Positions 48,926 to 62,928 of a stretch of DNA of 64,000 nucleotides are shown here, one piece after another (the first letter of the stretch is position 1; each line of letters starts with the position of its first letter). The translations under genes and the position numbers were made by a program. Location of the stretch: positions 13,130 through 77,129 of the forward strand of contig CAZOAR010000002.1 of assembly GCA_964577985.1 (NCBI GenBank), given 5' to 3'. Below the pieces are notes generated by a model. It was not told where the DNA came from, did not search any database, and saw only the letters and a program-made list of their open reading frames with translations. The stretch comes from an uncultured Gemmatimonadota bacterium. Its GTDB lineage: Bacteria > Gemmatimonadota > CAZMKB01 > CAZNLH01.

Positions 48926-50641
48926 TTATTCATCGATTGTAACACCCAGGACCTCTTCAATCGTCGTTTCTCCCGACAGGACCTTCTTGAGACCGCTCTC
49001 CCTCAGCGAAGACATACCGTGAGATGCCGCAACCTCTTTAATTCTCGTGCTGTGCTGTTGCGTGAGTATGCAATTTCGGACTTCTTCGTTGATCACAAGA
49101 ATCTCTATGACAGCCTTTCTTCCCCGGAATCCAGTCATTCGGCACTTGTCGCATCCTCTGGCCTGAAAAAAGGTGGCCCCTTCCGGCACTTCCTCCCTGA
49201 AGACGCTCTTCAGCAGTTCGGGAGCGGGTTCGAACGGCTGCTTGCAGCTTTCGCACAACACACGGATGAGTCTCTGCGCGATTACTCCAGATACCGTCGA
49301 GGCAAGGAGAAATGGTTCCACTCCCATTTCGATGAACCTCGTGAGCGCGCTGGAGGCATCGTTCGTGTGAAAGGTGGCAAGAACAAGATGACCCGTCATA
49401 GCGGCGTGAATAGCAACATCTGTAGTCTCCCTGTCCCTTATCTCTCCAACCATTATCACGTCGGGATCCTGCCTGAGAATTGCCCGCAGGCCATTAGCAA
49501 AATTCATTCCCGCCTTCGGATTGACCTGAGACTGCCTGATCAACTCCAGCTGGTATTCGACAGGGTCCTCGATCGTGATGATGTTTTTGGAAACCGTATT
49601 TATCTCATTGAGCATCGCGTAGAGCGTGGTCGTCTTCCCGCTCCCCGTTGGTCCGGTTACGAGGATGAAGCCATATGGGTCCGCCAGCATCTCCTTCACT
49701 CTTTCCAGATCGTTCTCCTCGAGTCCCAGGTTCCTTATCCCCAGTGAGACAGCCCTCTTGTTCAACAACCGGAGCACAAGGTTCTCTCCGTGGATCGTGG
49801 GGAAGGTCGAGACCCTTACCCCGATATCTTCGGTAGGCAGATTGAGCTCGAAACGACCATCCTGGGGCACCCTGCTCTTGGCTATGTCGAGCTTCGCCAT
49901 TACCTTGATTCGCGAGATGACGGGCAGTTGCAGACCCGTCGGCAGAACAGACACCTCCGACATCTTGCCGTCCACTCTGAACCGGGTCCGCGTGAACTTC
50001 GCCTCGGGCTCGATGTGAATATCGCTGGCCTTTTCCTTGACCGCCTGAAGGATCAACTCATTTACAAACCGTACTATCGGCCCCTCCTGGATCAACCCTT
50101 CCAGGTTCTTGACGTTGTACTCCTCCTCGCCATCCTGTCCCGTCGACGACTCGGAGACCTCACTTATCGCATCGTCCAGCGTGGCGCTCGAACCGTAATA
50201 ATTTCTTATCGCTTTATCCATGGCGGACATCGAGCTGAGTGCGGGTTCTACTTCGAGACCGGTTTCTCTTCGGATCTCATCCTGCGCCACTATATCACTC
50301 GGGTCAACCATGGCAACATTGAGCGTATTGCCGAGTTTGAACAACGGTATCACTTTGTAGGTCTCTGCAAGCCATTTGGAAATCAGCGAGACCGTCTGGG
50401 GCTCTATCACGTAGTGTTCGAGGTCAATTGTAGGTATACCGAGCTGCTCGCTCAGTATGCCTGTAAGGTCCTCCTCACGGATGAATTCAAGATCGACCAG
50501 AACCTCGCCCAGTTTCCGGGTCGAACCTCCCTGGACCTCCAGTGCTTCCTGCAGTTGCGCCTCAGTGATGAGTCCTCCCGAGAGGAGGATGTCCCCGAGT
50601 TTATCCTGCTTTTTGCTGCTCACCATTCCCTCCCGAGCCAC
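48926..50641 (-). CDS. pilB: Type IV pilus assembly ATPase (GspE/PilB family)
   Basis: N-terminal T2SE_N domain. Walker A GPTGSGKTTTLYA. Asp/His boxes. Tetracysteine CESC…CDKC. Confidence 0.9.
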   Translation of the reverse strand: MAREGMVSSKKQDKLGDILLSGGLITEAQLQEALEVQGGSTRKLGEVLVDLEFIREEDLTGILSEQLGIPTIDLEHYVIEPQTVSLISKWLAETYKVIPLFKLGNTLNVAMVDPSDIVAQDEIRRETGLEVEPALSSMSAMDKAIRNYYGSSATLDDAISEVSESSTGQDGEEEYNVKNLEGLIQEGPIVRFVNELILQAVKEKASDIHIEPEAKFTRTRFRVDGKMSEVSVLPTGLQLPVISRIKVMAKLDIAKSRVPQDGRFELNLPTEDIGVRVSTFPTIHGENLVLRLLNKRAVSLGIRNLGLEENDLERVKEMLADPYGFILVTGPTGSGKTTTLYAMLNEINTVSKNIITIEDPVEYQLELIRQSQVNPKAGMNFANGLRAILRQDPDVIMVGEIRDRETTDVAIHAAMTGHLVLATFHTNDASSALTRFIEMGVEPFLLASTVSGVIAQRLIRVLCESCKQPFEPAPELLKSVFREEVPEGATFFQARGCDKCRMTGFRGRKAVIEILVINEEVRNCILTQQHSTRIKEVAASHGMSSLRESGLKKVLSGETTIEEVLGVTIDE

Positions 50642-51014
50642 TCGAGCCGTCAGCCCCCGTCAGCCTGTCTATCATTTCTATCACTTCTACAACGTCGAAC
50701 GGCTTGGTAAGATATTCGTCAGCTCCCACCTCTTTGCCCATGCTGACGTGATGTGTATCGGTCTTGGCGGTCAGGAGAACTACAGGAATGCCGCTGTACT
50801 GAGAATCGTATTTCAACATCCGGCAGACCTTGTATCCATCGAGATTGGGCATCATGATGTCCAGGAGGATGACATCGGGCTCGAGGCTGCGCGCTCTGTC
50901 CAGGGCCTCCAGACCATCATTCGCCTCAAGTACCTCGTGTCCATGCGCCTCGAGGACAAACCTCAAGGTCTCCACGATATCCAGCTCATCGTCGACGACC
51001 AGCACCCTCGCCAT
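50601..51014 (-). CDS. Response regulator, single receiver domain (CheY-like)
   Basis: MARVLVVDDE…ILLDIMMP…LTAKTD…KP. Confidence 0.8.
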   Translation of the reverse strand: MARVLVVDDELDIVETLRFVLEAHGHEVLEANDGLEALDRARSLEPDVILLDIMMPNLDGYKVCRMLKYDSQYSGIPVVLLTAKTDTHHVSMGKEVGADEYLTKPFDVVEVIEMIDRLTGADGSSGSGGNGEQQKAG

Positions 51015-51039
51015 CAGGGACCTCCTTTAATCCGCCGGA

Positions 51040-51450
51040 TCAACTGTGGCTCTCCATTTCTCGGAGGGGGCTATCCTCGACATCGTTGATCGGGACATAG
51101 AGCGAAACGACCCTCATGAACTCCTCCAGAGTAAACGGCTTTGTGAGAAATTCATTTGTGCCCACTTCATAACCCCTGGCCTTGTCCTTCTCGTCGCTCT
51201 TGGCGGTGAGCATGACGATGGGGATGTGTTGAAACTTCGAGTCGAACTTCAGATAACGACTCACCTGGAAGCCGTCGAGGCCCGGGAGCATGACATCCAG
51301 GATTATCAGGTCAGGATTCCACTTTCTCGCTTTTTCAAGCGCGTCAAGACCATCGGACGAGAAGAGGCACTCGTGACCGTAGCCCTCCAGCGTGAGCTTG
51401 AGGCTCTTCAGGATCTCCTCTTCGTCGTCTACCACGAGAATTCTCGACAT
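51040..51450 (-). CDS. Response regulator, single receiver domain (CheY-like)
   Basis: MSRILVVDDEEE…IILDVMLPGLDG…LTAKSD…KP. Confidence 0.8.
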   Translation of the reverse strand: MSRILVVDDEEEILKSLKLTLEGYGHECLFSSDGLDALEKARKWNPDLIILDVMLPGLDGFQVSRYLKFDSKFQHIPIVMLTAKSDEKDKARGYEVGTNEFLTKPFTLEEFMRVVSLYVPINDVEDSPLREMESHS

Positions 51451-51497
51451 TCATCCCTCCGCGGACAGGTGTTGTATAGCTCCGTACTGCTGCCTGA

Positions 51498-52439
51498 TCA
51501 GTTCTTTCTCTTGTCCACCTTGCAGACGCTCCCGGGGAACGTCTTTGCGTAGTTCTTCATCTCTGTGGCCACCTCGGCAGCCCTGATGTGGGAATCGATC
51601 TTCATATTTACGTTTGTGGCAACCCCTATGGAAATCGACAGCATCGGATGCCTTACAACGTTGCCCCGTCTGTCGGGAAGTTCCAGGAAACCTCTTTCCA
51701 GATCTTCTGCGTTGTAAAAGCCCGGGAGGGAAGTCTGGAACCGTGTAATGATCTCGTCGCACAACCTCCTCGCACGCTTCGGATGCGTGATGAGGATAAG
51801 GTCGTCACCGCCGATGTGACCTATGAAATCGTTCCTGTTCCCCATGTCGTCTACGACGTTGATTATGGTCTCGGCGACGTGCCTGATAACCTGATCACCA
51901 TGATTGTAGCCATAATGATCGTTATACGGCTTGAAGTTGTCGAGATCGAGATAGGCGAGTGCGAATTTCTGGTCTTCCTTGATCCTGCGGTCTATCTCTT
52001 TGTTGATGCTTATGTTGCCAGGCAGCTTTGTCAGGGGGTTTGAGCTCAGGCTCTTCTCGACCCTCCTTAGAATCATATTTATGCGCGCTCCGAATTCGTC
52101 CAGCTGAAAGGGCTTGCTGATGAAATCGTCCACACCCTCCTCGAACGCGAGAATCTTGTCGCTGTAATCCGATTTGACGGTTATCATGATCACCGGGATA
52201 TGTGCGGTGATAAAACTCTTTTTGAGTTGCGCGCAGACTTCCACGCCTGTCATCTCCGGGAGAAGGAGGTCGAGAAGAATCAGATCGGGACGGGCCTCCT
52301 GGGCCTGGTCAAGTGCAGCTTTCCCATCATAGGCCTCGAAACACTCGAACCCCTTTTCTTCGAGGTTGAAACGGAGCAGTTTCACAAAGTTCTTTTCGTC
52401 ATCGACTATCAGCACTTTTTTCTTCGCGATGGTTTCCAT
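51498..52439 (-). CDS. Response regulator receiver fused to a GGDEF domain with a degenerate active-site motif
   Basis: Receiver (KVLIVDDEKN…ILLDLLLPEMTG…). GGDEF fold (…LTKLPGN…YLDLDNFKPYNDHYGYNHGDQVI…) in which the GG(D/E)EF site reads GGDDL (IGHIGGDDLILI). Confidence 0.8.
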   Translation of the reverse strand: METIAKKKVLIVDDEKNFVKLLRFNLEEKGFECFEAYDGKAALDQAQEARPDLILLDLLLPEMTGVEVCAQLKKSFITAHIPVIMITVKSDYSDKILAFEEGVDDFISKPFQLDEFGARINMILRRVEKSLSSNPLTKLPGNISINKEIDRRIKEDQKFALAYLDLDNFKPYNDHYGYNHGDQVIRHVAETIINVVDDMGNRNDFIGHIGGDDLILITHPKRARRLCDEIITRFQTSLPGFYNAEDLERGFLELPDRRGNVVRHPMLSISIGVATNVNMKIDSHIRAAEVATEMKNYAKTFPGSVCKVDKRKN

Positions 52440-52903
52440 CAGGAGGTCCCCTTTTTCTTTTCTAAAAGGTCCTTCACTTTCTTTTCAAGCTCATCAATGT
52501 CGAAGGGCTTGTACATGAAATCTTCCGCCATGCTCCAGGACCTGAGCAACTTCTCTTTTCCGGTGTCTGAGAACTTGGCCCCGGTCAATATCAATATAGG
52601 GATGTATTCGGAATCCGGTTTTCCCCTCATCTCTTCCTTTACGATTCGTGAGACTTCATATCCATTCAACTTTGGAAGAAGGACATCGAGTATGATGAGA
52701 TCGGGATTTTCGGCTATGGCGGCGCCGAGCGCCTCATAACCGTTCTCGGCGGTGATTATCTCATAGCCTTCCTGCTCCAGGACAAACTGGATCATGGCCA
52801 CGGTATCCGGTTCGTCATCGACAACCAGGATTTTCTCTCTTTCGATCCCGGTGACGTCTTCTCCCACGACAACCACCTCACTTTTCCAGGTCTGACACGC
52901 CAA
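52439..52903 (-). CDS. Response regulator, single receiver domain
   Basis: KILVVDDEPDT…IILDVLLPKLNG…LTGAK…KP. Confidence 0.75.
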   Translation of the reverse strand: MACQTWKSEVVVVGEDVTGIEREKILVVDDEPDTVAMIQFVLEQEGYEIITAENGYEALGAAIAENPDLIILDVLLPKLNGYEVSRIVKEEMRGKPDSEYIPILILTGAKFSDTGKEKLLRSWSMAEDFMYKPFDIDELEKKVKDLLEKKKGTS

Positions 52904-53393: not shown

Positions 53394-54425
53394 CTACAGG
53401 ACGTCCGGATCGTGATCCGGTGGCCGTGTCGGATCTTCCGGAGGAAGGCCATTTGCATCCTCCGCTGGGACAGCCTTGAAGAGTTTCGGCTGTTCAGACA
53501 GCAATTCGATCCCGTCAGGAAGCTCTATCATCGGGGAGTAGTAGGTCTCCCCAACTGGAGGGTCGTTGATTTCTATATATACATCAATTTCGTTCTTGTT
53601 GAGCACCTGGATAAGGGAAATAGGTCCGATGACTGCAAGTTCTATGTTGCCAGGCTGAACAGAGAACTCGTCCCGGAGCCTGCCCCTGATGGTAATAGGA
53701 ATCTCCCCGAGCTCAATTTCGACAAATTTCTCAACCTTCCCGGATAGCGTGACCTTTTTCACGCTGGGCGCTACCGTCCTCATGCCGGAAAGATCGAGCG
53801 GCAGCGAGATGTCAAATGAATCCTTCACGCCATCTACCACACCTTCCACAGTCATTATCGAGTCAACGTTACTGAGCTCCCCTCGCGCGCCACTCAACAA
53901 GACGGTGGGCGGGTCTATGGAGACACCGCCGGCAAGCACATATCCTTCATCGGGCACGATCCTCAGGCGAGACACGATCGTCAACTCCCTCTCTATAAGC
54001 CTGTCCAGGGCCAGATGAAGTTCGGCCGGGGACTTGACCCCGAGCGGGATGAGGTTGATGTCCGAGGGCATGGATAGAGATGAGACATCGAGACTCAGGT
54101 CTCTCACCCCCACATCACTCCCTTCTACCTCTTTGACGAAAAACGGCTTTTTCCACCAGAGCTTCAACAGCTCTTTGCCTGTCCCCGCGAATATTATGCT
54201 CACCTCGGATGGAGGCTCGTTCACAATCACAAGTGTCGTGTCGGAGACCACTATCTCGAGAGGGACCGGGTAGTCAAGCTGGTGAGCCTGGTCAGTCACC
54301 GCGTGAAACCAGAGAAAAAGACCGAGTACGAGGGCTATGACCTTCAGAAGGATATTTTTCGAAAACCATCCTCTTAAAGATGCCAAAAGGTGTGGATCAG
54401 ATCCTGGTCTCACTCTCCCGGGCAT
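53394..54425 (-). CDS. YbbR-like domain protein (CdaR family)
   Basis: N-terminal TM segment …LKVIALVLGLFLWFHAV… followed by repeated YbbR-like beta domains. No CdaA is adjacent. Confidence 0.7.
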   Translation of the reverse strand: MPGRVRPGSDPHLLASLRGWFSKNILLKVIALVLGLFLWFHAVTDQAHQLDYPVPLEIVVSDTTLVIVNEPPSEVSIIFAGTGKELLKLWWKKPFFVKEVEGSDVGVRDLSLDVSSLSMPSDINLIPLGVKSPAELHLALDRLIERELTIVSRLRIVPDEGYVLAGGVSIDPPTVLLSGARGELSNVDSIMTVEGVVDGVKDSFDISLPLDLSGMRTVAPSVKKVTLSGKVEKFVEIELGEIPITIRGRLRDEFSVQPGNIELAVIGPISLIQVLNKNEIDVYIEINDPPVGETYYSPMIELPDGIELLSEQPKLFKAVPAEDANGLPPEDPTRPPDHDPDVL

Positions 54426-54488: not shown

Positions 54489-54857
54489 TTATGTTTTATC
54501 TTTATGCCGTTCCCGACTGCCATGTGTTTCGTGATAATAAGCGCCCTGCTCCTTAGTGTCAAGCTTTAATGAGGAGTGTCCCTGGAGGGATTTCCTGAGG
54601 CGGTTTTCATCTACTCTATATTTAAACGCCTTGCGGCCACAGACGAAGATAACCGGTATCTCTTCGCCATAGAGCCTGGTGAGCTCATCATCTTTCGAGA
54701 TGTCTATTTCACGATAAACGAACGGGATCTCCTGCTTCACCCTCATTATCACGTCCTTCGCCTTTCGGCAGAGAGAGCATCCCGACCGCGTATAGAGTGA
54801 AACGGTCAGGTTACTCGATTCTGATATATTTGCACCTTCCATCCTATTCAGCATCAT
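54489..54857 (-). CDS. Glutaredoxin-like protein (thioredoxin fold, CxxC = CSLC)
   Basis: …VSLYTRSGCSLCRKAKDV…IPVIFVCGR… resembles NrdH/glutaredoxin. Start Met uncertain (several Mets between 54842 and 54899). Sits immediately downstream of selenoprotein candidate A. Confidence 0.6.
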   Translation of the reverse strand: MMLNRMEGANISESSNLTVSLYTRSGCSLCRKAKDVIMRVKQEIPFVYREIDISKDDELTRLYGEEIPVIFVCGRKAFKYRVDENRLRKSLQGHSSLKLDTKEQGAYYHETHGSRERHKDKT

Positions 54858-55806
54858 AGATTCTCCGGAGCTGCGCCTTCCTCCTCGTCCTGTACTCATC
54901 CAGAAAAGGCAGCATCCCTGACTGGTCTTCGATGTCGGACCCGAGGGGAATCAATTCCGCGCTTTTCTGTTCAACGGGGCTATCGCCGAGCCCGAGATCC
55001 AGCCGCCCGAGAGAACGTCCGTGAGTCTCACCCTTCAGGACCACTGTTCCACCAACCAATATGGGATCGTAGATCCTTGTGCCACCGTGCCCCAGTATTA
55101 CCACGTCGAGGTTCTGGTACTTCTCTGCCAGTTTCCTGCCCTCATCGAAACCGACGTGGAACAAACCCACGAGGAGATCGACTTTATCCTTCAATTCTAT
55201 CGTGAGTTTCTCGACACGTTCATCCGGATCCGCCATAACCCATCCAGGGGCCATCATACCATCGCCGGTCGGCAGCGTGACACCTATCAACCCGATCTTC
55301 AACCCGCCCCTGTCGACAATCAGAGATGGTATGCCGACTTCCTCGCCCTCGAACTCGAGATTACACGAAAGAAGCGGTAGACGTCCAGAAAGACTCTCAA
55401 TGAATTGATTCCCCATGGCTAGATCTCGCTCGCCGGGGACAACGGCGTCATACTTCATCGCCGCCATAGCCTTTGCCAGTATATCCGATTTGAGCTCACC
55501 CAGCGGGTCCGGCGCCAGCGAGAAGTCGCCCACATTCACGAGCAGCACAGCCTGGCCCTCTTGTCTTATCTTATCGATCATCGTCGCCCGCCGGGCGATT
55601 CCACCCTGAAGGGGCTTCTTTCACCCGCACGGCTCCAGGTATCCCAGCTCGTCCGAACTGTACAGGATCGTCACCAGAGAAGATTCCTCGGCGGGAGAGG
55701 AGACCGGGAAAAGCAGCGCCGCCACACATGAAAGAAGGAGAAACAGTCCGGCCCCCGGAGATGAAATAACTCGGCCAATACGGGTCCCTGACAAGGAACT
55801 CATCAT
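54844..55806 (-). CDS. Candidate selenoprotein A: secreted degenerate metallophosphoesterase-like protein with in-frame TGA (Sec) at 55621..55623, motif …YLEPCG-U-KKP…
   Basis: ORF-track entries 55621..55806 and 54844..55581 are in the same frame (55623-55581=42) and separated only by TGA plus 13 sense codons (KKPLQGGIARRAT). Signal peptide. ILYSSDELG replaces the DxH motif-I, NVGDFS is motif II, GERDL replaces GNHE, and GHGG is retained. The ATG overlaps the TGA of the DtxR-like gene. Confidence 0.6.
55584..55598 (-). promoter_or_regulatory. Putative SECIS-like hairpin about 25 nt downstream of the UGA of selenoprotein A
   Basis: mRNA UCGCCCGGCGGGCGA (5-6 bp GC stem). The same nucleotide sequence occurs at the equivalent position in paralog B. 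Confidence 0.35.
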
Positions 55807-56666
55807 GTCACCTCCCTCACAAAAATCTCTCTGCCGACGGCCTTATCGAGCGCGACCGTTGTCTCGTCCACCTCCACCACGTAGCTGGGATGGCGCTGTT
55901 TGAGTCTGAGGACGCCGCCCGGCGCCAGTCCAAGCGTGCCGAGGCGCTCGAGCCTGCTCTGATAGCTTGGTGTTATGAACACAACACGTGCTTTCTTTCC
56001 CACTTCGAGGTTCGTCAATGGCGTCACAAGGGGTTCGATATGCGTTCCGAAGATCCTGCAGCAGTCGCCCCGGGGGATAGCCTTCCCGTGGGGACAGGTC
56101 GGGGGATGCCCGAGGAATGTGCACACCCTGTCGGTCACCTGAGGGCTCAATATGTGTTCGAACTTGCAGGCACTGCTGTGGGCCTCAGGATCGCCTACGT
56201 CGAGAATCTCCATGAGCAGTCGTTCTGCGAGCCGGTGACTGCGCACGATCTTTCTGGCGATCGCTCTCCCACGTTCCTTCATGAATATTTCGCCATCCCC
56301 GAGCGAGATCAGACCTCTATCCTCTATCGCTCTCAGCTGATCTGACAGCTGCCCCTTCCCCTTGAAATCCACTGAGTCATGCGGCGATTCATCGCTTTCC
56401 GCCTCTCGTGTCCCAGATTCGCCTTCGAGCATCGACACCTTGAGGCCGCCTTCTCCTCCACCCTCTTCCCACAACCACAACCTTTGGAGCAATTCTTCTA
56501 TGCGTTCTTCCAACTCTACTCTCCCTGGCTTTCTTCCCTGTGACTGAACCCGCGCTTGATGACAGCGCATATCCTGCCGATAATATCTACAATCTTCGAT
56601 TGGCCGACGACCTGATACCCGCAGCGGGGACAGCAGGCAAGATGGTTCCCGCTCGACAGGGGGCAA
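55803..56666 (-). CDS. DtxR/IdeR-family metal-dependent regulator with C-terminal FeoA/SH3-like domain
   Basis: …SHRLAERLLMEIL…, …CTFLGHPPTCPHGKAIP… (DtxR metal site). C-terminal …VGKKARVVFITP…LGLAPGGVLRLKQRHPSYVVEVDETTVAL (FeoA-like). N-terminal extension is atypical and the start is uncertain. Confidence 0.7.
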   Translation of the reverse strand: MPPVEREPSCLLSPLRVSGRRPIEDCRYYRQDMRCHQARVQSQGRKPGRVELEERIEELLQRLWLWEEGGGEGGLKVSMLEGESGTREAESDESPHDSVDFKGKGQLSDQLRAIEDRGLISLGDGEIFMKERGRAIARKIVRSHRLAERLLMEILDVGDPEAHSSACKFEHILSPQVTDRVCTFLGHPPTCPHGKAIPRGDCCRIFGTHIEPLVTPLTNLEVGKKARVVFITPSYQSRLERLGTLGLAPGGVLRLKQRHPSYVVEVDETTVALDKAVGREIFVREVT

Positions 56667-56718
56667 GTGGAGCAGCTCGAATTATCCCGATCGAATTCAA
56701 GACCACACAACTGACACG

Positions 56719-58680
56719 TCAGAATGTCCAACCCATGCCTCTCAGGATCGTGTTCAACACACCGCCCGTCAGGATCGCAAACGGGAAAATGAAGGCCATC
56801 ATCGCCAGGGCCATGCCCAGTCCCCTCTCCTTGACGATTATAAAGAAATTGGCGATGCATGGAACGAAAAGAGTTATCGTGACCAGGCTCACGACTATCT
56901 GAACACCGTCGAGCTTGCCGTCACGCGCCAGCATGAAGAGCCCGGCGGCGCCATAATCTCTCCGCAGAAATCCCACGACAAAAGACTCGGTCGTTTCACC
57001 CGGCAGACCCAGAAAACCCTCGACAACGGGTCGTGCCGCGTGTTCAACGGCCGACAGGAGTCCGATCCTGCTGGAGAGGAAAAGAACCAGCGTGCCAAGG
57101 ACAAAGAGGGGAACCGCCTCCTTGAGATACCACTCTATCCGGGCGACACTCTTTGTCACTATGTTCTTCATCTGCGGAAGCCTCACCGGGGGTATCTCGA
57201 GTATGAAATCCGCCCGTTCTCCGGGAATCACAAGTGATGCCAGAAAACCCACGAGGAGCAACATGCACGAGATTACTCCCACCCAGAGCAGAGTCGCCCC
57301 GAACGACAGGCCCCCCAGCATTCCCAGAATGACCCCGAGCTGTGCGGAGCACGGAACGCCGAGGGCGAGAAGCAGTGTCGTAACGATCTTCTCTTTCCTG
57401 CTGCCCAGGATACGTGTCGTCAGTGTGGCCATGGTGTCACATCCGAGTCCAAGGATCATGGGCAGGACGGCTTTTCCGTTGAGACCTATCATTCTGAATA
57501 CCCTGTCCACCATGACGGCGAGCCTGGGCAGGTAGCCCGAATCTTCCAGTATACCGAAGGCGACAAAGAAAGTGCCTACAACAGGAAGTACGATCGCCAC
57601 TGAATAGGTAAGCGCCATAGTGAAGACACCATATTCCCCGACGAGGAGGTCCCGTACAAGCTGAAACGGGATGATGGCGTCGACCAACCTTGTGACAGCC
57701 GGATTTACATACTCACCAAAGACCACACCTTCCATGAAGTTCACCATATCACCGGCTCCCAGCACACCCACAAACTCATACAGAAGATAGAGTACGACAA
57801 GCAGGAACGGAATGCCCCACAGGGGATGCATGGCCAATTCCCCGATATCCTTCACGACGGATGACTTCCGGGCGGCTTTTTTCGAAAGCACCTTGTCCAG
57901 GATCCTGTCGATCGCCCACAACCGCTGCTGATTGATGATCGACCCGATGGGCTGCGCGTATTTAGCCCTCATCACCCTGCACACTTTCTCGATGCCATCG
58001 ATCGCATCGGTGTTTATCCTGTCTCTGAGATACGGTATTATCGTCGTGTCGCCGGAAAGCAACATCAGCGCCAGGGAACGCCGAGCTATCGCGCAGTGGG
58101 GCAGCAATTCCTCGAGTCCGGCTATTGCCTCCTCGACTTCCTCCGAATATACGACAGGTCTTCCTGTTTTCTTCTCTTTCGTGATACCCTTCAGGAGGGA
58201 GTCGATCCCCTCTCTTCGGGTCGCCACTGTAGAAACAACGTCTATACCAAGCAATTCCGAGAGCCTGTCCGTGTCAACCTTTATGCCTCGGTTACTGGCC
58301 TCGTCGCCCATATTCAGATCGAGGAGGAAGGGGAGTCCCATCTCGATCAACTGTATGGAGATGCTGAGAGCACGCCTGAGGTTTTTCGCATCCGCGACCT
58401 GTACGATGCTGTCCGCCGGGTGCTCAAGAAGGACATTCCGCGTCACCTCTTCATCCTCCGATGTGGGCACCAGACTGTTAATCCCGGGCGTGTCAAAGAC
58501 GGTATAGCTCTCTCCGCCGAGTACCACCTTCCCTACACTCATCTCAACGGTGGTCCCCGGATAATTGGACACGGTCACATATCGTCCGGTCATGACATTG
58601 AAGAGCACGCTCTTTCCCACGTTGGGGTTGCCCACCAGGATCAGCTTCTTCTCTATTCTTTCAGTGCGGGTTCTGGTCAT
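56719..58680 (-). CDS. feoB: Ferrous iron transporter B
   Basis: G-domain LILVGNPNVGKSVLFN…DTPG. Long polytopic C-terminal permease. Confidence 0.9.
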   Translation of the reverse strand: MTRTRTERIEKKLILVGNPNVGKSVLFNVMTGRYVTVSNYPGTTVEMSVGKVVLGGESYTVFDTPGINSLVPTSEDEEVTRNVLLEHPADSIVQVADAKNLRRALSISIQLIEMGLPFLLDLNMGDEASNRGIKVDTDRLSELLGIDVVSTVATRREGIDSLLKGITKEKKTGRPVVYSEEVEEAIAGLEELLPHCAIARRSLALMLLSGDTTIIPYLRDRINTDAIDGIEKVCRVMRAKYAQPIGSIINQQRLWAIDRILDKVLSKKAARKSSVVKDIGELAMHPLWGIPFLLVVLYLLYEFVGVLGAGDMVNFMEGVVFGEYVNPAVTRLVDAIIPFQLVRDLLVGEYGVFTMALTYSVAIVLPVVGTFFVAFGILEDSGYLPRLAVMVDRVFRMIGLNGKAVLPMILGLGCDTMATLTTRILGSRKEKIVTTLLLALGVPCSAQLGVILGMLGGLSFGATLLWVGVISCMLLLVGFLASLVIPGERADFILEIPPVRLPQMKNIVTKSVARIEWYLKEAVPLFVLGTLVLFLSSRIGLLSAVEHAARPVVEGFLGLPGETTESFVVGFLRRDYGAAGLFMLARDGKLDGVQIVVSLVTITLFVPCIANFFIIVKERGLGMALAMMAFIFPFAILTGGVLNTILRGMGWTF

Positions 58681-58711
58681 AGATCACCGGTCAACGCCGT
58701 ATCGCTCCTCA

Positions 58712-59179
58712 TCAGTCAATCTCCGTCGAACATTTCCTGCACAGCCCGTAGATCACCAGCTCATGATCCCGGGCGTCAAAGCTGAGCTTGTCAATTACGA
58801 CCTCCTGCAGCCGTTCTATATCAGGCACCTCGAACTCGATCACCTCGCCGCAATCCTCGCAAATCAAGTGATCGTGATGGCGTTTGTCAATGATCCTTTC
58901 GAATTTCCGGAACCCGACGCCGAAATCGTGCTCCCGGACCACCCCACTCGAGACCATCAGCGCGAGCGTCCTGTAAATGGTCGCCAGACCTATCCTGAGG
59001 TTCTTCTTCTTCAGGACGAGCGCGAGTTCCTCCACGGAGAAATGGCCATCCATCGACATGACCGTCGTCGCGATTTGCTCCCGCTGAAGCGTGAGAAACA
59101 GCTTCTCCTCTCTGAGGTACTCCCTGAATCTGCCTGTAGTATCCATGATCTGCTCTTCGAAATTGAGAATGATTATCAA
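58712..59179 (-). CDS. fur: Fur-family transcriptional regulator
   Basis: …LRRTLQREQIATTVMS… HTH. HHDHLICEDCGEVIEFE metal site plus C-terminal CRKC. The true start is likely the internal ATG at 59146. Confidence 0.85.
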   Translation of the reverse strand: MIIILNFEEQIMDTTGRFREYLREEKLFLTLQREQIATTVMSMDGHFSVEELALVLKKKNLRIGLATIYRTLALMVSSGVVREHDFGVGFRKFERIIDKRHHDHLICEDCGEVIEFEVPDIERLQEVVIDKLSFDARDHELVIYGLCRKCSTEID

Positions 59180-59183
59180 TATA
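59165..59183. promoter_or_regulatory. Fur box in the fur / oxidoreductase divergent promoter region
   Basis: GAGAATGATTATCAATATA matches GATAATGATAATCATTATC at 15 of 19 positions. Confidence 0.5.
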
Positions 59184-59275
59184 AGTTATCGGCGATACGG
59201 TCAGCTGTCAAGGACCATTTGACTCGACTGATGAGAATGGCTAATATAACACAAACGCAAGAGGAGGAACCAGAG

Positions 59276-60319
59276 ATGCGTGCAGTTACTATCCATGGTC
59301 ATGGCGGGCCCGAAGAACTTCGCCTGGAAGAAGTGGAAAAGCCGACACCCGGCAAAGGAGAGGTGGTGGTGAGACTTGCGGCCGCGGCACTTAATCATCT
59401 CGATATCTGGGTGTTGAAAGGTGTACCGGGCCTCACGCTTTCTTTCCCCCATATCATGGGTTCCGACGGCTCCGGGACGGTGGATCAACCTGGTGAGGCA
59501 GTCGACGGAATCAAAAAGGGAGACAGGGTCCTGATCAATCCCGGCATAAGCTGCGGGGAGTGTGAATTCTGCGGGAAAGGCGAGGAGAGCGAGTGCCGCT
59601 CCTTTCACCTGCTGGGAGAGCATATAGACGGGACATTCGCCGAGTATGTCGCGGTGCCGGAGAAAAACCTCCACGTCGTGCCTGAACATCTCTCTTTCGA
59701 GGAAGCCGCTGGTCTGCCCCTTGTATTTCTCACCGCGTGGCGGATGCTCGTATCAAGGGCGCATCTGGCTGCCGGTGAGGACCTGCTGGTGATAGGCGCA
59801 GGTGGCGGGGTAGCCGGAGCGGCCATCCAGCTCGGGCTGGAGCTGGGAGCCAGGGTGATCGCGACGTCAGGCGATCCGGAAAAGGTGGAGAAAGCGTCGA
59901 AGATGGGCGCACACCACGCGTTCAATCACGGGGAGAAGGATATAGTCAGGGAGGTCAGACAGTTTACGAAAGGGAGGGGCGTAGATGTCTGTGTGGACTC
60001 CGTTGGAGAAGCCACCTGGAGCAAGAGCATCGGCAGCCTTGTCAAGGGAGGAAGGCTGGTGAGCTGTGGGGCAACATCGGGTCCCCTGGGGGAGACCGAC
60101 ATCCGCAGGGTCTTCTGGAACCAGTTGACTATCCTCGGCTCGACGATGGGCAGCCGGTCTGACGTAAGAGAAATGCTTCGCTTCGTGGAGGAGAGAAGCA
60201 TGAAACCCGTCATCGACACCATATTTCCCCTGGAGAATGCCCTCGAGGCCCACGAGCGCATGATCCAGGGAGAACAGTTCGGCAAGCTGGTCCTCAGGAT
60301 AAGCGGGGACAGGTCATGA
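59276..60319 (+). CDS. Zinc-type alcohol dehydrogenase / quinone oxidoreductase (MDR superfamily)
   Basis: AGGAGGA RBS. MRAVTIHGHGGPEELRLEEVEKPTPGKGEVVVRL…, GxGxxG (VIGAGGGVAGAAIQL). Confidence 0.85.
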   Translation: MRAVTIHGHGGPEELRLEEVEKPTPGKGEVVVRLAAAALNHLDIWVLKGVPGLTLSFPHIMGSDGSGTVDQPGEAVDGIKKGDRVLINPGISCGECEFCGKGEESECRSFHLLGEHIDGTFAEYVAVPEKNLHVVPEHLSFEEAAGLPLVFLTAWRMLVSRAHLAAGEDLLVIGAGGGVAGAAIQLGLELGARVIATSGDPEKVEKASKMGAHHAFNHGEKDIVREVRQFTKGRGVDVCVDSVGEATWSKSIGSLVKGGRLVSCGATSGPLGETDIRRVFWNQLTILGSTMGSRSDVREMLRFVEERSMKPVIDTIFPLENALEAHERMIQGEQFGKLVLRISGDRS

Positions 60320-60942
60320 GGTCTGGATTGGCGAGACGCGCGTTCGCATTGTTCCTGATCTCTCTGCCGGTATTTGCCGGCACTCTCATGGCAGGGGAGG
60401 AAGACGCCGAAGGGCCGGGAAAGGAAATCGACACAAAAAAGCAGGAGACCTTCGATGTGGCCGTCATAGAGACCAGGTTCGGGAATATCGCATTCGAATT
60501 CTACCCCGGGGATGCACCAAACCACGTGAAGAACTTCAAGAAACTGGCAGGGGAGGGTTTCTACAACGGCACTACCTTCCACCGGGTCGTTCCCGCTTTC
60601 ATCATCCAGGGTGGAGACCCCCTTTCCAGAGACGATGACAGGAGCAACGACGGCACCGGCAGGCCTGATTATACTATAGATGCCGAGATCAATTCGCGGA
60701 AGCACTTCAAGGGAACGGTCTCGATGTCGAGATTGCAGGATGACAAGAACAGCGCCGGCAGCCAGTTTTTCATATGCCTGGCCAGGCAGCCCAGCCTTGA
60801 CGATGAATATACCATATTCGGAAAAGTGATAGAAGGAATGCAGGTTGTGAGCCGGATCGCCACGGTCGAGACAGACTCTCTCGACAATCCGATAGACCCG
60901 GTCCTGCTGGATAGTGTATATATCGAGACAAGAGAGAAATAG
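60316..60942 (+). CDS. Peptidyl-prolyl cis-trans isomerase, cyclophilin type, secreted
   Basis: Signal peptide. …GFYNGTTFHRVVPAFIIQGGDP…, …SMSRLQDDKNSAGSQFFICL…. Confidence 0.85.
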   Translation: MRSGLARRAFALFLISLPVFAGTLMAGEEDAEGPGKEIDTKKQETFDVAVIETRFGNIAFEFYPGDAPNHVKNFKKLAGEGFYNGTTFHRVVPAFIIQGGDPLSRDDDRSNDGTGRPDYTIDAEINSRKHFKGTVSMSRLQDDKNSAGSQFFICLARQPSLDDEYTIFGKVIEGMQVVSRIATVETDSLDNPIDPVLLDSVYIETREK

Positions 60943-60966
60943 CCGGCCGGACCCGCGCGATCCATG

Positions 60967-61506
60967 TCAGAGCAATTCCTCGATCTTCTCCTCCATAAAC
61001 GCACGCCCCCTGAAGCCTTCGAGCATTTCCCTTACTCTTCCCTCCCTATCAAAGATAAATGTCGTGGGAACTCCCCCTATTCCGCCGAAGAGGTGAGCCG
61101 TCTCCACGCTGCCGATCAGGAGAGGGATCTTGACCTTGTGCCTCTCGATAAAAGAATTGAGATACTTACCCTCCCCCTTGTCGAGAGAGATGGCTACGAC
61201 TTCCAGGCCCTCTTTCTTATGTTCCGACTCGAGCCTGTCGAGCCCCTTCAGTTCGGCTACACTCGCCTCCGCGGATGGCATCCAGAAGAGAATGACAACG
61301 ACTTTTCCCCACAACTCGGATGAGCTGTGGATTCCGGCGCGATGGTCCTTCAGGGAGAACCGCGGAAGATATGCCTCATCAGGCAACCCGTAGGGTTTTT
61401 TCCCTGGATAGAACAGAACGATGGCCGTGACAATCGCGATCAATACCAGCGCGGAGAAGATCAAGATCTTTCGCCGGCTCTTTTCGGACCTTTTCACACA
61501 CATCAC
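60967..61506 (-). CDS. TlpA/ResA-like thioredoxin-fold protein lacking the CxxC active site
   Basis: N-terminal TM anchor. Thioredoxin fold (…GKVVVILFWMPSAEASVAELKGL…VVAISLD…IPTTFIFDREGRV…) in which the canonical WCxPC is replaced by WMPSAEAS. Confidence 0.65.
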   Translation of the reverse strand: MMCVKRSEKSRRKILIFSALVLIAIVTAIVLFYPGKKPYGLPDEAYLPRFSLKDHRAGIHSSSELWGKVVVILFWMPSAEASVAELKGLDRLESEHKKEGLEVVAISLDKGEGKYLNSFIERHKVKIPLLIGSVETAHLFGGIGGVPTTFIFDREGRVREMLEGFRGRAFMEEKIEELL

Positions 61507-61596: not shown

Positions 61597-62928
61597 TCAG
61601 TGAACGAGATCCTTCATCGCCTCGTAGTCGAAGCCCTCTCCCCTCTCACCCGTGTGACAGGTGATGCATACAAAGACATTGCCCGCCTGTAGAGGCGCGT
61701 TTCCTTTGTCGGCAATATGCCTTGACGCCGGACCATGGCACTGTTCGCACTGGACGTTATTGAAGTTGGGAGTCTCGTCTATTGTCACAAAACCGCCTTT
61801 CTGATAACCGGTCGTGTGACACTTCACGCATTCCGGGTTGTACTCCTCGCCTTCCTTCTTGAGCGTAAGAAAAGCACGGGCGTGGCTCGTAGCATTCCAC
61901 TTCTCGTATATCTCAGCATGACAGGAACGGCACCACGCGGCGCCCATGTAGCCCGCCTTAGAACCCTTCAATTGCCCCCTTCGAGCATCCACATCGCTTT
62001 TTACCATATCCTTGACTCTCGACTGGTAGTCGGAGTAGAGTTCCGCCATCTCTGTGTCATCAGCGACCTTCGCGTCGAGAGGCACGAGTTCTCCGGAGAA
62101 TTCTACGATTTCCTTCGCCTTACGGTCAAAGGTAAGATCTATCCTGCCAAGATACTTACCCTTATCACCGGACTGGGCCATTATGGCTCCACCAACCGAT
62201 ACCGGTGTCTTCACCCTTCGACCCTGATGCCCCACGACAACGACATCTATCCCCTCCTGGCTTTCCGCCAGCGCAACCGACTGCCGATATCCCAGATGGC
62301 TCATCACCACAACAAGGTCGACCTTCTTACGCAATCTCGGAATGGCCTCCGCGAGGGCCTCGAACGGATCCTGGACCGTCCATTCCTCCTGCCCGACCCT
62401 GAGTTGATCAAGGGTGACCCCCACTATGCCGATTTTGATTCCTCCCCGCTTGATTATGAGATCTTTCCTGCCAAACTGCTTCCCGTTGTACTTCATATTC
62501 GTGTCGACGATGGGGATATCGCTCTTCTTCATCGTCTCCATGACAAACTCATCACCAAGCGCCAGTTCTCTCTCACCAAGCACAAGCGCGTCGTAATGCA
62601 TCTTCTTCATCGCCTCGAGGGACACGCTGCTCTTGACCCTTCCCTGATCGGTTGGCTTGCCGGCAAAATCTCCCAGACCCAGTATCAAGATCTCTCTATC
62701 CTCGTCTTCCGCCTCTCGTATCTTCGTCGCCCGCCGGGCGACCCCTCCCATAGGGTGCTTCTTTCAGCCACACGGTTCGAGATACCCGTATTCATCGCCT
62801 GTGTAGAGGATCGTAAGATTAACCAGGTCGCCACCCCTGGATGATGCGGGCAGAAGAGGAATGGACAGGAAGAGCGGCACGATGGAGGTCAGCGCCGCCG
62901 CGATAAGACACTTGTTTCGAAAAGACAT
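61597..62928 (-). CDS. Candidate selenoprotein B: secreted metallophosphoesterase-like domain with in-frame TGA (Sec) at 62764..62766 (…YLEPCG-U-KKH…) fused to a C-terminal tetraheme cytochrome c
   Basis: ORF-track entries 62764..63009 and 61597..62751 share a frame (62763-62751=12) and are separated by TGA plus four sense codons (KKHP). Signal peptide from the internal Met (MSFRNKCLIAAALTSIVPLFLSIPLLPASS). Motifs ILYTGDEYG / GLGDFAG / GERELALG / VVGHQG. C-terminal CRSCH, CVKCH, CEQCH, CITCH. Confidence 0.6.
62726..62742 (-). promoter_or_regulatory. Putative SECIS-like hairpin about 25 nt downstream of the UGA of selenoprotein B
   Basis: mRNA GUCGCCCGGCGGGCGAC (7-bp stem, 3-nt loop). Core GCCCGGCGGGCGAC is identical to the paralog A site. 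Confidence 0.35.

Follow-up and report, generated by a model that had tools for sequence, protein, structure and literature searches.

The locus considered here raises the question of whether two related selenoproteins are each served by a thioredoxin-fold protein encoded immediately downstream, and what such a partner could contribute when its active site contains no cysteine. The window (the whole 64-kb stretch of DNA that was analysed) carries two UshA-like genes, A and B, each with an in-frame TGA directly behind GYLEPCG in the read-through translation. A is followed by a gene for a glutaredoxin-like (Grx-like) protein, and B by a gene for a membrane-anchored protein of the ResA/TlpA fold, here designated TlpA*. 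An earlier note on this DNA had described these genes and had suggested, from their repeated pairing, a thiol/selenol relay. All of the features described for the four genes were found in the sequence, on the minus strand; the interpretation of the two pairs had to be revised.

Selenoproteins A and B

The features of the two UshA-like genes are as follows.

61597..62928, minus strand: selenoprotein B; besides a signal peptide it has a UshA-like domain of the degenerate metallophosphoesterase kind and, at the C terminus, a tetrahaem domain resembling cytochrome c554
62766..62764, minus strand: TGA codon of B, in the motif E-P-C-G-U (read-through translation)
62727..62741, minus strand: SECIS-like hairpin of B, UCGCCC-GGC-GGGCGA, beginning 25 nt past the UGA
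54844..55806, minus strand: selenoprotein A, a UshA-like paralogue shorter than B, likewise with signal peptide and E-P-C-G-U motif
55623..55621, minus strand: TGA codon of A (read-through translation)
55584..55598, minus strand: SECIS-like hairpin of A, 25 nt past the UGA

B was found to pass the cut-off of the NCBIfam family NF041198 (UshA_like_PCGU; 297.9 bits, cut-off 275), and its C-terminal cytochrome domain, which includes four CxxCH haem sites, matched Pfam Cytochrome_C554 with 63.6 bits. A lacks the cytochrome domain and, with 141.5 bits, is not a member of NF041198 by score. Neither protein reached the 140 bits required for NF049981 (UshA-like (seleno)protein family 2), A scoring 62.6 and B 89.5. 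The P-C-G-U/C motif is present in both, and in homologues of B a Cys stands at the column of the TGA; Sec and Cys forms both exist in the NF041198 family, represented by 41 and 38 of 80 loci, respectively. The orthologues of A (P0139-P0147) are 52-100% identical to it. Thus, the motif and the TGA codon noted earlier in these selenoprotein candidates are present, while the family to which A and B belong is one already described (COG0737 UshA-like, CxU; NF041198). UshA-like CxU/CxC proteins have figured in lists of the major selenoprotein families of prokaryotes since 2008 (Zhang & Gladyshev 2008, PMC2398784) and are covered by reviews (PMC9312934, PMC13188914); neither a function nor a partner is given for them in the literature found.

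The 6-bp hairpin recurs in every A-type or B-type gene of the clade (12/12), where one compensatory change, C-G to U-A, was seen. As it overlaps the coding sequence of the conserved GG(I/V)ARRA, its conservation is moderate evidence for a putative SECIS element, and single-sequence folds of the candidate SECIS regions were not better than those of shuffled sequences (z = -1.1 and -1.6). No tRNA genes were found within the window.

At their N termini, A and B have domains that can be aligned with 5'-nucleotidases (E = 2e-19 to 2z1a). Of the features of the dimetal metallophosphoesterases 5'-nucleotidase/UshA and SoxB, both proteins keep the GD motif as well as two His ligands located further on. 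In contrast to these enzymes, B has DEY and A has DEL in place of DxH, and GNHE has become GERE (B) or GERD (A); neither protein has the nucleotide-binding domain (PF02872) at its C terminus, and a Cys-Gly-Sec loop follows motif I. Given the altered motifs, the missing PF02872 domain and the Cys-Gly-Sec loop, phosphoesterase activity of A and B appears doubtful.

A conserved thioredoxin-fold gene behind B

The gene downstream of B has the following features.

60967..61506, minus strand: TlpA*, anchored in the membrane at its N terminus, with the thioredoxin-fold domain facing the periplasm; the ORF lies 90 nt past the stop codon of B
61261..61287, minus strand: former active site of TlpA*, F74-W-M-P-S-A-E-A-S82, located by profile alignment to ResA chains

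The anchor consists of KRSEKSRRK followed by about 20 hydrophobic residues, and the protein matched the Pfam families AhpC-TSA (57.6 bits), Redoxin (34.3 bits) and Thioredoxin_8 (26.7 bits). The AhpC-TSA score (PF00578) passes the cut-off of 26, but the domain has no peroxidatic cysteine and TlpA* was not taken for a peroxiredoxin. Scores against the NCBIfam models for ResA (58.7 bits, cut-off 170) and TlpA (29.9 bits, cut-off 230) were both below the cut-off. With an AlphaFold model of pLDDT 85, the best Foldseek match was ResA (TM 0.88, E = 4.5e-13), and Chlorobium DsbE matched with a TM of 0.92.

In the profile alignment of TlpA* to ResA structures, FWGTWCEPCKKE stands opposite FWMPSAEASVAE, and therefore C74 and C77 of ResA (residue numbering taken from PDB entry titles) correspond to A79 and S82 of TlpA*. 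The CxxC motif reads A-E-A-S, and E85, the equivalent of ResA E80, is located just downstream. No other frame or TGA hiding a Cys or Sec in the motif was found on inspection of the sequence. The sole cysteine of TlpA* is residue 3, in the cytoplasmic tail, and it is lost if the start codon is the GTG at 61497. As both redox cysteines have been lost, TlpA* is predicted to be incapable of thiol-disulfide exchange.

ResA of Bacillus subtilis, CcmG/DsbE and TlpA of Bradyrhizobium are thiol-disulfide oxidoreductases that are anchored in the membrane, act outside the cytoplasm and are supplied with electrons by CcdA or DsbD. TlpA* shares their fold, including the ResA-type insertions, as well as the N-terminal anchor and outward-facing topology; it has kept the cis-Pro and, at the position of ResA Glu80, an acidic residue, and it adjoins a c-type cytochrome gene. 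It differs from them in that both cysteines of W-C-x-x-C are replaced and the preceding Trp is Ser, such that it amounts to a naturally occurring equivalent of the ResA variant C74A/C77A made by engineering. A selenium link within the TlpA fold is also seen in the ResA-like WAxxUGC selenoprotein (NF041054) and in the UGC TlpA-family selenoproteins; the match of TlpA* to NF041054 is weak (33.7 bits, cut-off 300), and those proteins have Sec in their active site, where TlpA* has neither Sec nor Cys.

About 15 homologue clusters of TlpA* were found among 5.8 billion proteins, with identities of 49-99%. All keep the Cys-less motif as F-W-x-x-S-x-E-[AS]-S-V-A-E, have no conserved Cys and retain an intact reading frame, down to 49% identity. 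There are 41 invariant columns in the family, concentrated around the former active site, and they include S78, S82, A84, E85 and P147 (the cis-Pro); E80 and H138, which lie at the former active site with S78 and S82, are nearly invariant. The most conserved 16-residue segments, at residues 123-143 and 74-89, correspond to the former active-site surface, and the substrate-binding face that is kept comprises the cis-proline loop, the equivalent of ResA Glu80 and the loop ETAHLFGG. Among 1.84 billion representatives the family forms a single isolated cluster (300 bits vs 179 for the next match). Elsewhere CxxC is the rule, being kept by all 84 other TlpA-like ORFs of the metagenome scan and by 188 of 210 related domains. 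For TlpA*, dN/dS was 0.14, with dS (0.63) short of saturation. TlpA* is a genuine conserved gene under purifying selection, and a frameshifted pseudogene, considered in the earlier note, is ruled out.

TlpA* was found directly downstream of the B orthologue, on the same strand and with gaps of 18-216 nt, in 8/8 related loci (the window, L001, L002, L004, L086, L166, L167 and L168, a count that leaves out P0021 and P0027, two B orthologues on long contigs). A CcdA gene is located between B and TlpA* in three of these loci and is absent from the other five; both cysteines are retained in the CcdA of L001 and L002. No terminator-like site was found between B and TlpA*. This adjacency is beyond chance, and B and TlpA* constitute a conserved gene pair. 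All relatives share the gene order of the whole stretch of some 15 kb (B ... Fur-FeoB-DtxR ... A/Grx ... YbbR ... response regulators), however, and therefore adjacency alone could instead reflect general synteny among related genomes.

Possible roles of TlpA*

TlpA* and B are predicted to reside in the same compartment. It is tentatively proposed that TlpA*, which likely derives from a CcdA-TlpA reductant-delivery module placed beside B, a module whose CcdA persists between the two genes in 3/8 relatives, now most likely has a non-redox role towards exported B, as a binding partner, as a holdase or in its assembly. TlpA* would act without redox chemistry and would bind B either at the Cys-Gly-Sec loop or at the CxxCH sites of haem attachment. 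The argument for binding is drawn from conservation, and the conserved Ser, Glu and His could equally mean binding of a metal or cofactor. Of the roles entertained in the earlier note, that of a non-redox chaperone or adaptor is the one favoured by the evidence, while a classical thiol/selenol relay through TlpA* is not supported, the protein having no usable cysteine.

CnoX/YbbN (SxxC), the b' domain of PDI and ERp29 are redox-inactive thioredoxin-fold binding proteins that have lost their catalytic cysteines and kept a substrate-binding or chaperone role. A functional analogy with these is proposed for TlpA*, although they belong to other subfamilies and other compartments, no sequence relationship beyond the fold is shown, and the chaperone role of TlpA* would be a putative one. 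TlpA* would then represent a natural 'double mutant', kept by one Sec-using clade, in which binding is separated from electron transfer. Should the binding role hold, TlpA* could serve as bait in pull-downs for the study of an otherwise uncharacterised periplasmic enzyme containing both haem and selenium.

As to CcdA, its occurrence beside a partner unable to accept electrons is at odds with the proposed origin from a CcdA-TlpA module, and its absence from five of the eight loci also counts against that origin.

A general role of TlpA* in cytochrome c maturation in an anaerobe, in the manner of ResA/CcmG, seems unlikely by comparison with a B-specific binding partner. TlpA* would in that case only present apocytochromes to the haem lyase and would serve all c-type cytochromes, with thiol chemistry dispensable since the periplasm is not oxidising. 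Such a role would fit the nearest structures (ResA and CcmG/DsbE), the invariant cis-Pro and Glu80 equivalent, the CcdA gene alongside in 3/8 loci and the four CxxCH sites in B. However, all TlpA* members with readable flanking DNA sit behind B (8/8), no ccsA/ccsB-type or resB/resC-type genes were seen adjoining TlpA*, and a housekeeping factor ought to be spread over many more lineages than the roughly 15 clusters obtained from 5.8 billion proteins.

The remodelled metal site of B, in which DxH and GNHE have become DEY and GERE and the other ligands are kept, might point to TlpA* acting as a chaperone that brings a metal or cofactor to this altered dimetal site, with Ser78, Glu80, Ser82 and His138 as ligands in place of the cysteines. 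Sco/TlpA-type thioredoxin-fold proteins act in CuA assembly and offer an analogue, and the four residues, invariant or nearly so, are all positioned at the former active site. This role is nonetheless regarded as improbable, the case for it being purely inferential and drawn from sequence.

Possible thiol partners of A and of the wider family

The features of the gene downstream of A are as follows.

54489..54857, minus strand: Grx-like protein (DUF836, Pfam PF05768), with an ATG start behind GGAG
54779..54768, minus strand: C27-S-L-C30 of the Grx-like protein (sequence read directly)

The Grx-like protein matches the Pfam family Glrx-like/DUF836 (PF05768) over its full length, with 66.6 bits against a cut-off of 26, and its CxxC is retained, CSLC being kept in all five orthologues (L169, L173, L001 and L167 among the named loci). 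No difference from PF05768 was found, and the protein is an ordinary member of this uncharacterised family. Its ORF overlaps the end of A, at the stop codon (54846..54844), by 14 nt. Both A and the Grx-like gene are present in three of eight loci, A alone in three and the Grx-like gene alone in two, and tblastn revealed no Grx remnants in the A-only loci. A and the Grx-like gene are not a conserved pair: their adjacency is real in the window and variable in close relatives. They share a variable genomic slot and, probably, a transcript. Since A has an export signal and the Grx-like protein has no signal peptide, contact between mature A and the Grx-like protein is unlikely. The Grx-like protein is probably an ordinary cytoplasmic dithiol protein and no dedicated partner of A, the pairing being incidental. 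Nevertheless, some functional link, for instance before export, may exist, because the 14-nt overlap is identical in two lineages (the window and L169) and the two genes co-occur in three. The repeated pairing put forward earlier is therefore not supported within the window: it holds for B and TlpA* and fails for A and the Grx-like gene, and a direct relay between the latter two is made unlikely by their difference in export.

The wider UshA-like/cytochrome family was surveyed at 80 distant loci, 41 with a Sec form and 38 with a Cys form. Exported CxxC thioredoxin-fold proteins were found as neighbours of 14/38 Cys-form genes vs 0/41 Sec-form genes. They belong to three unrelated types (DsbA-like, Trx-like and TlpA-like; 14/80 loci) and occur in at least seven lineages. 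A thiol partner is a recurrent theme in this family, and its recurrence is an argument for the Cys-Gly-Cys/Sec loop acting as a redox-active pair that other proteins service. The check set out in the earlier note, whether homologous loci keep a thioredoxin-fold gene beside the family, gave a mixed result: about 66 of the 80 loci have no such neighbour, and redox-active ones never accompany the Sec forms.

The same data bear on the possibility that both pairs are true redox relays, the Grx-like protein reducing the Cys-Sec pair of A and TlpA* working via the Sec of B. The tight coupling of A with the Grx-like gene and the recurrence of thioredoxin-fold partners across the family speak for it. 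It is given little credence, since A and the Grx-like protein differ in export and occur without each other (in three and two lineages), TlpA* has no thiol for a mixed intermediate, and redox-active neighbours lie beside Cys forms only.

It might be, although this is speculative and rather improbable, that in the UshA-like/cytochrome family a dedicated exported CxxC oxidoreductase is needed by the Cys-Gly-Cys form and dispensable for the Cys-Gly-Sec form. Once this clade had changed to Sec, the thiol chemistry of the partner would have become redundant, leaving a redox-inert, B-specific adaptor and, in some genomes, a left-over CcdA. If true, the use of Sec would here rewire a periplasmic electron-delivery pathway.

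Last, the view of TlpA* as what is left of a decaying CcdA-TlpA module, having no function of its own and kept only by regional collinearity, is very improbable: the loss of both catalytic cysteines, the five loci without CcdA and the strong synteny would agree with it, but the selection and conservation data largely refute it, the dN/dS being 0.14, the frame being intact in all 15 clusters, the 41 invariant columns being concentrated at the former active site and the fold being predicted with confidence.

Two selenoprotein genes and their thioredoxin-fold neighbours

Two paralogous genes of the window, here designated A and B, have an in-frame TGA right behind the codons for ...GYLEPCG, and each is followed by a thioredoxin-fold gene, one of which has its CxxC replaced, as had been reported in the earlier note on this DNA. 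The four genes are:

62928..61597, minus strand: gene B, TGA at 62766..62764; signal peptide, UshA-like domain and C-terminal domain with four CxxCH sites
61506..60967, minus strand: ResA/TlpA-fold gene without the active-site cysteines (Cys-less TlpA), beginning 90 nt past B
55806..54844, minus strand: gene A, TGA at 55623..55621; signal peptide and UshA-like domain only
54857..54489, minus strand: glutaredoxin-like (Grx-like) gene with CSLC (DUF836, 66.6 bits), sharing 14 nt with the end of A

Both selenoproteins are members of a known family, referred to as 'COG0737, UshA-like, CxU' (PMC2398784; reviews PMC9312934, PMC13188914). With 297.9 bits B exceeds the curated threshold of NF041198 (NCBIfam 'UshA-like (seleno)protein', 275 bits), and A lies under the cut-offs of NF041198 (141.5 bits) and NF049981 (62.6 bits). 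The C-terminal domain of B was matched by Pfam Cytochrome_C554 (63.6 bits), and the closest relatives of B among named genomes, at 35% identity, are from Fibrobacteraceae and Eisenbacteria. A 6-bp hairpin located 25 nt past the UGA is kept in 12/12 genes of the clade with one compensatory change; it coincides with the stretch that encodes the conserved GG(I/V)ARRA peptide, single-sequence folds score no better than shuffles, and the hairpin counts as no more than moderate evidence for a SECIS element. The alignment, where the TGA position matches Cys in many homologues, is the stronger argument for Sec.

Alignment with solved 5'-nucleotidases disclosed a remodelled dimetal site in A and B, in which DxH is changed to DEY in B and DEL in A, and GNHE to GERE in B and GERD in A, while the GD motif stays, as do two later His ligands. 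The Cys-Gly-Sec loop comes right behind motif I. As the metallophosphoesterase signature is only partly retained, it seems unlikely that A and B are ordinary nucleotidases.

The Cys-less TlpA behind gene B

The N-terminus of Cys-less TlpA is positively charged and leads into a membrane anchor, in place of which some family members carry a lipoprotein-type cysteine within the signal region. It matches the AhpC-TSA and Redoxin families of Pfam, the ResA match in NCBIfam being under the cut-off. In the profile alignment FWGTWCEPCKKE stands opposite FWMPSAEASVAE of ResA chains, such that both ResA cysteines are substituted (A79 and S82) and the invariant E85 occupies the position of ResA Glu80. 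The AlphaFold model (pLDDT 85) superimposes on ResA with a TM of 0.88 and on Chlorobium DsbE with a TM of 0.92. A peroxiredoxin role was ruled out for a protein without cysteine.

The motif F-W-x-x-S-x-E-[AS]-S-V-A-E, with no conserved cysteine, was found in all 15 clusters of the family (49–99% identity), so that the absence of the cysteines is genuine and neither a pseudogene nor a sequencing error accounts for it. Comparison with a relative of 83% identity gave a dN/dS of 0.14 at a dS of 0.63, and the suggestion that the reading frame might be a frameshifted pseudogene is refuted by this value and by the motif. The top two conserved 16-residue windows were 123–143, the loop to cis-Pro, and 74–89, the former active site.

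Among 1.84 billion representatives the family forms a single isolated cluster (300 bits, next match 179 bits). CxxC is kept in 188/210 TlpA-like domains of the best 150 representatives, and most of the 22 domains without it are degenerate repeats of multidomain proteins. A metagenome scan with the family profile gave one true member, at locus L086; the other 79 loci carry ordinary CxxC TlpA-like proteins, and CxxC is present in all 84 other TlpA-like reading frames of the scan. A literature search turned up no description of a Cys-less TlpA or ResA family; some of the neighbourhoods may already be covered by Haft & Tolstoy 2025 (mSystems, 'Novel selenoprotein neighborhoods'). As far as could be found this Cys-less ResA/TlpA-type partner of B is an undescribed variant. 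Separately, P0247, P0259, P0361 and P0362 are large multidomain proteins with tandem TlpA-like repeats, several without CxxC; redox-dead TlpA-like domains thus also occur outside the family, and such repeats are apparently undescribed.

Gene order in close relatives

Exact-sequence look-ups with the Cys-less TlpA of the window and of a 99% relative matched no contig, and the context was compared in more distant relatives. A B orthologue is followed by Cys-less TlpA on the same strand in 8/8 loci (the window, L001, L002, L004, L086, L166, L167 and L168), a count that does not include P0021 and P0027, B orthologues from long contigs. A gene for CcdA, an electron donor of ResA/TlpA-type proteins, lies between the two in L001, L002 and L086, and both CcdA cysteines are retained in L001 and L002. 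The entire region is collinear across the relatives compared, and adjacency alone is therefore no proof of a functional link; the link gains weight from the common strand and short gaps, from the lack of a terminator-like site between B and Cys-less TlpA, and from the occurrence of the Cys-less TlpA family nowhere else. The convergent PPIase and ADH genes were discarded as partners, being on the opposite strand, and PPIase is missing from L167. No Sec-machinery, cytochrome-maturation or CcdA family was among the 25 most frequent of the 81 Pfam families in the 42 other window reading frames, nor did phmmer find a CcdA match among the window reading frames.

Conservation of the gene pair holds for B and Cys-less TlpA but not for A and Grx-like, whose slot behind Fur-FeoB-DtxR/FeoA and ahead of a YbbR-domain gene is variable.

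Occupancy of the A/Grx-like slot
A and Grx-like together: window, L169, L173
A without Grx-like: L002, L004, L174/L175
Grx-like without A: L001, L167

No Grx remnant was detected by tblastn in the loci with A only, and of five loci found via Cys-less TlpA, which are unbiased for this slot, only one has both genes. The Grx-like protein has no hydrophobic N-terminus. This variable presence, together with the different predicted compartments, makes a dedicated relay between A and the Grx-like protein unlikely.

The iron-uptake cluster of Fur, FeoB and a DtxR/FeoA fusion (55803..59179, minus strand) lies between the two selenoprotein loci and is syntenic in all relatives, the Grx-like gene standing directly behind it in L001 and L167; a 114-aa Cys-rich reading frame (56516..56860) overlaps the FeoB/DtxR junction. 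The YbbR-domain gene (53394..54425, minus strand) follows the slot in the window and relatives, and its usual companion, the diadenylate cyclase gene cdaA, was not seen near it. Further downstream on the minus strand (50601..52903 and 48926..50641) are four single-domain response regulators, a response-regulator-GGDEF protein and a PilB/MshE-type ATPase, an arrangement conserved in L170, L173 and L174. In L004 a neighbouring protease has a weak Por_Secre_tail match, which together with the Fibrobacteraceae and Eisenbacteria relatives of B is a weak hint of the FCB group.

Neighbours in the wider family and the proposed role of Cys-less TlpA

Species-representative genomes of many phyla were scanned and yielded 80 loci (L006–L085) with 26–35% identity to B, of which 41 are Sec forms (Cys-Gly-Sec loop), 38 are Cys forms (Cys-Gly-Cys) and one has no N-terminus. 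Pfam scans of the immediate neighbours, tabulated for the 25 most frequent families, disclosed no recurrent upstream partner and DsbA-like as the commonest downstream family; rare thioredoxin-fold singletons beside Sec forms were excluded only through local profile searches. Exported CxxC neighbours were counted with purpose-built profiles.

Exported CxxC thioredoxin-fold neighbours at the 80 loci
DsbA-like, CxxC: 10 loci; Nitrospinota, Thermodesulfobacteriota, Nitrospirota, a deltaproteobacterial MAG and Pseudohongiella
Trx-like, WCGWC or CPWC, with signal peptide: 3 loci; Planctomycetota
Canonical TlpA-like, WCSPC: 1 locus, L076; 4-nt overlap with the start of the UshA-like gene

Such neighbours accompany 14/38 Cys forms vs 0/41 Sec forms (Fisher p = 8e-6, not corrected for phylogeny). 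In L080 the family gene has a convergent DUF255 neighbour, probably by coincidence. That thiol oxidoreductases of three unrelated types were recruited convergently is an argument for the Cys-Gly-Cys/Sec loop being a redox-active pair that an exported partner services. To judge from its sequence, the partner in the clade of the window, Cys-less TlpA, cannot perform thiol-disulfide exchange. The observation of the earlier note is confirmed and its interpretation, a thiol/selenol relay, partly supported: the exported oxidoreductases beside Cys forms of the family give it some basis, but the redox incapacity predicted for Cys-less TlpA and the improbable A-Grx relay speak against it.

The best-supported reading is that Cys-less TlpA derives from a CcdA-TlpA module and was kept as a putative partner of B that, with no redox chemistry of its own, would bind it or aid its assembly through the conserved face of the former active site; candidate ligands are the CGU loop, the CxxCH sites or a metal. 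Competing readings are a general cytochrome-maturation factor, a metallochaperone and a true redox relay. A decaying remnant is contradicted by the selection data and largely excluded.

At L076 (3983–7398, a Latescibacterota MAG) the TlpA-like WCSPC protein is a lipoprotein and its gene overlaps that of a 938-aa fusion of a large N-terminal domain of unknown type, a UshA-like (CGC) domain and a cytochrome domain. Tandem family paralogues stand side by side in L013 (2810 and 3965), L030 (4883 and 6058) and L077 (4510 and 6064), the pairs in L013 and L077 each consisting of one Sec form and one Cys form.
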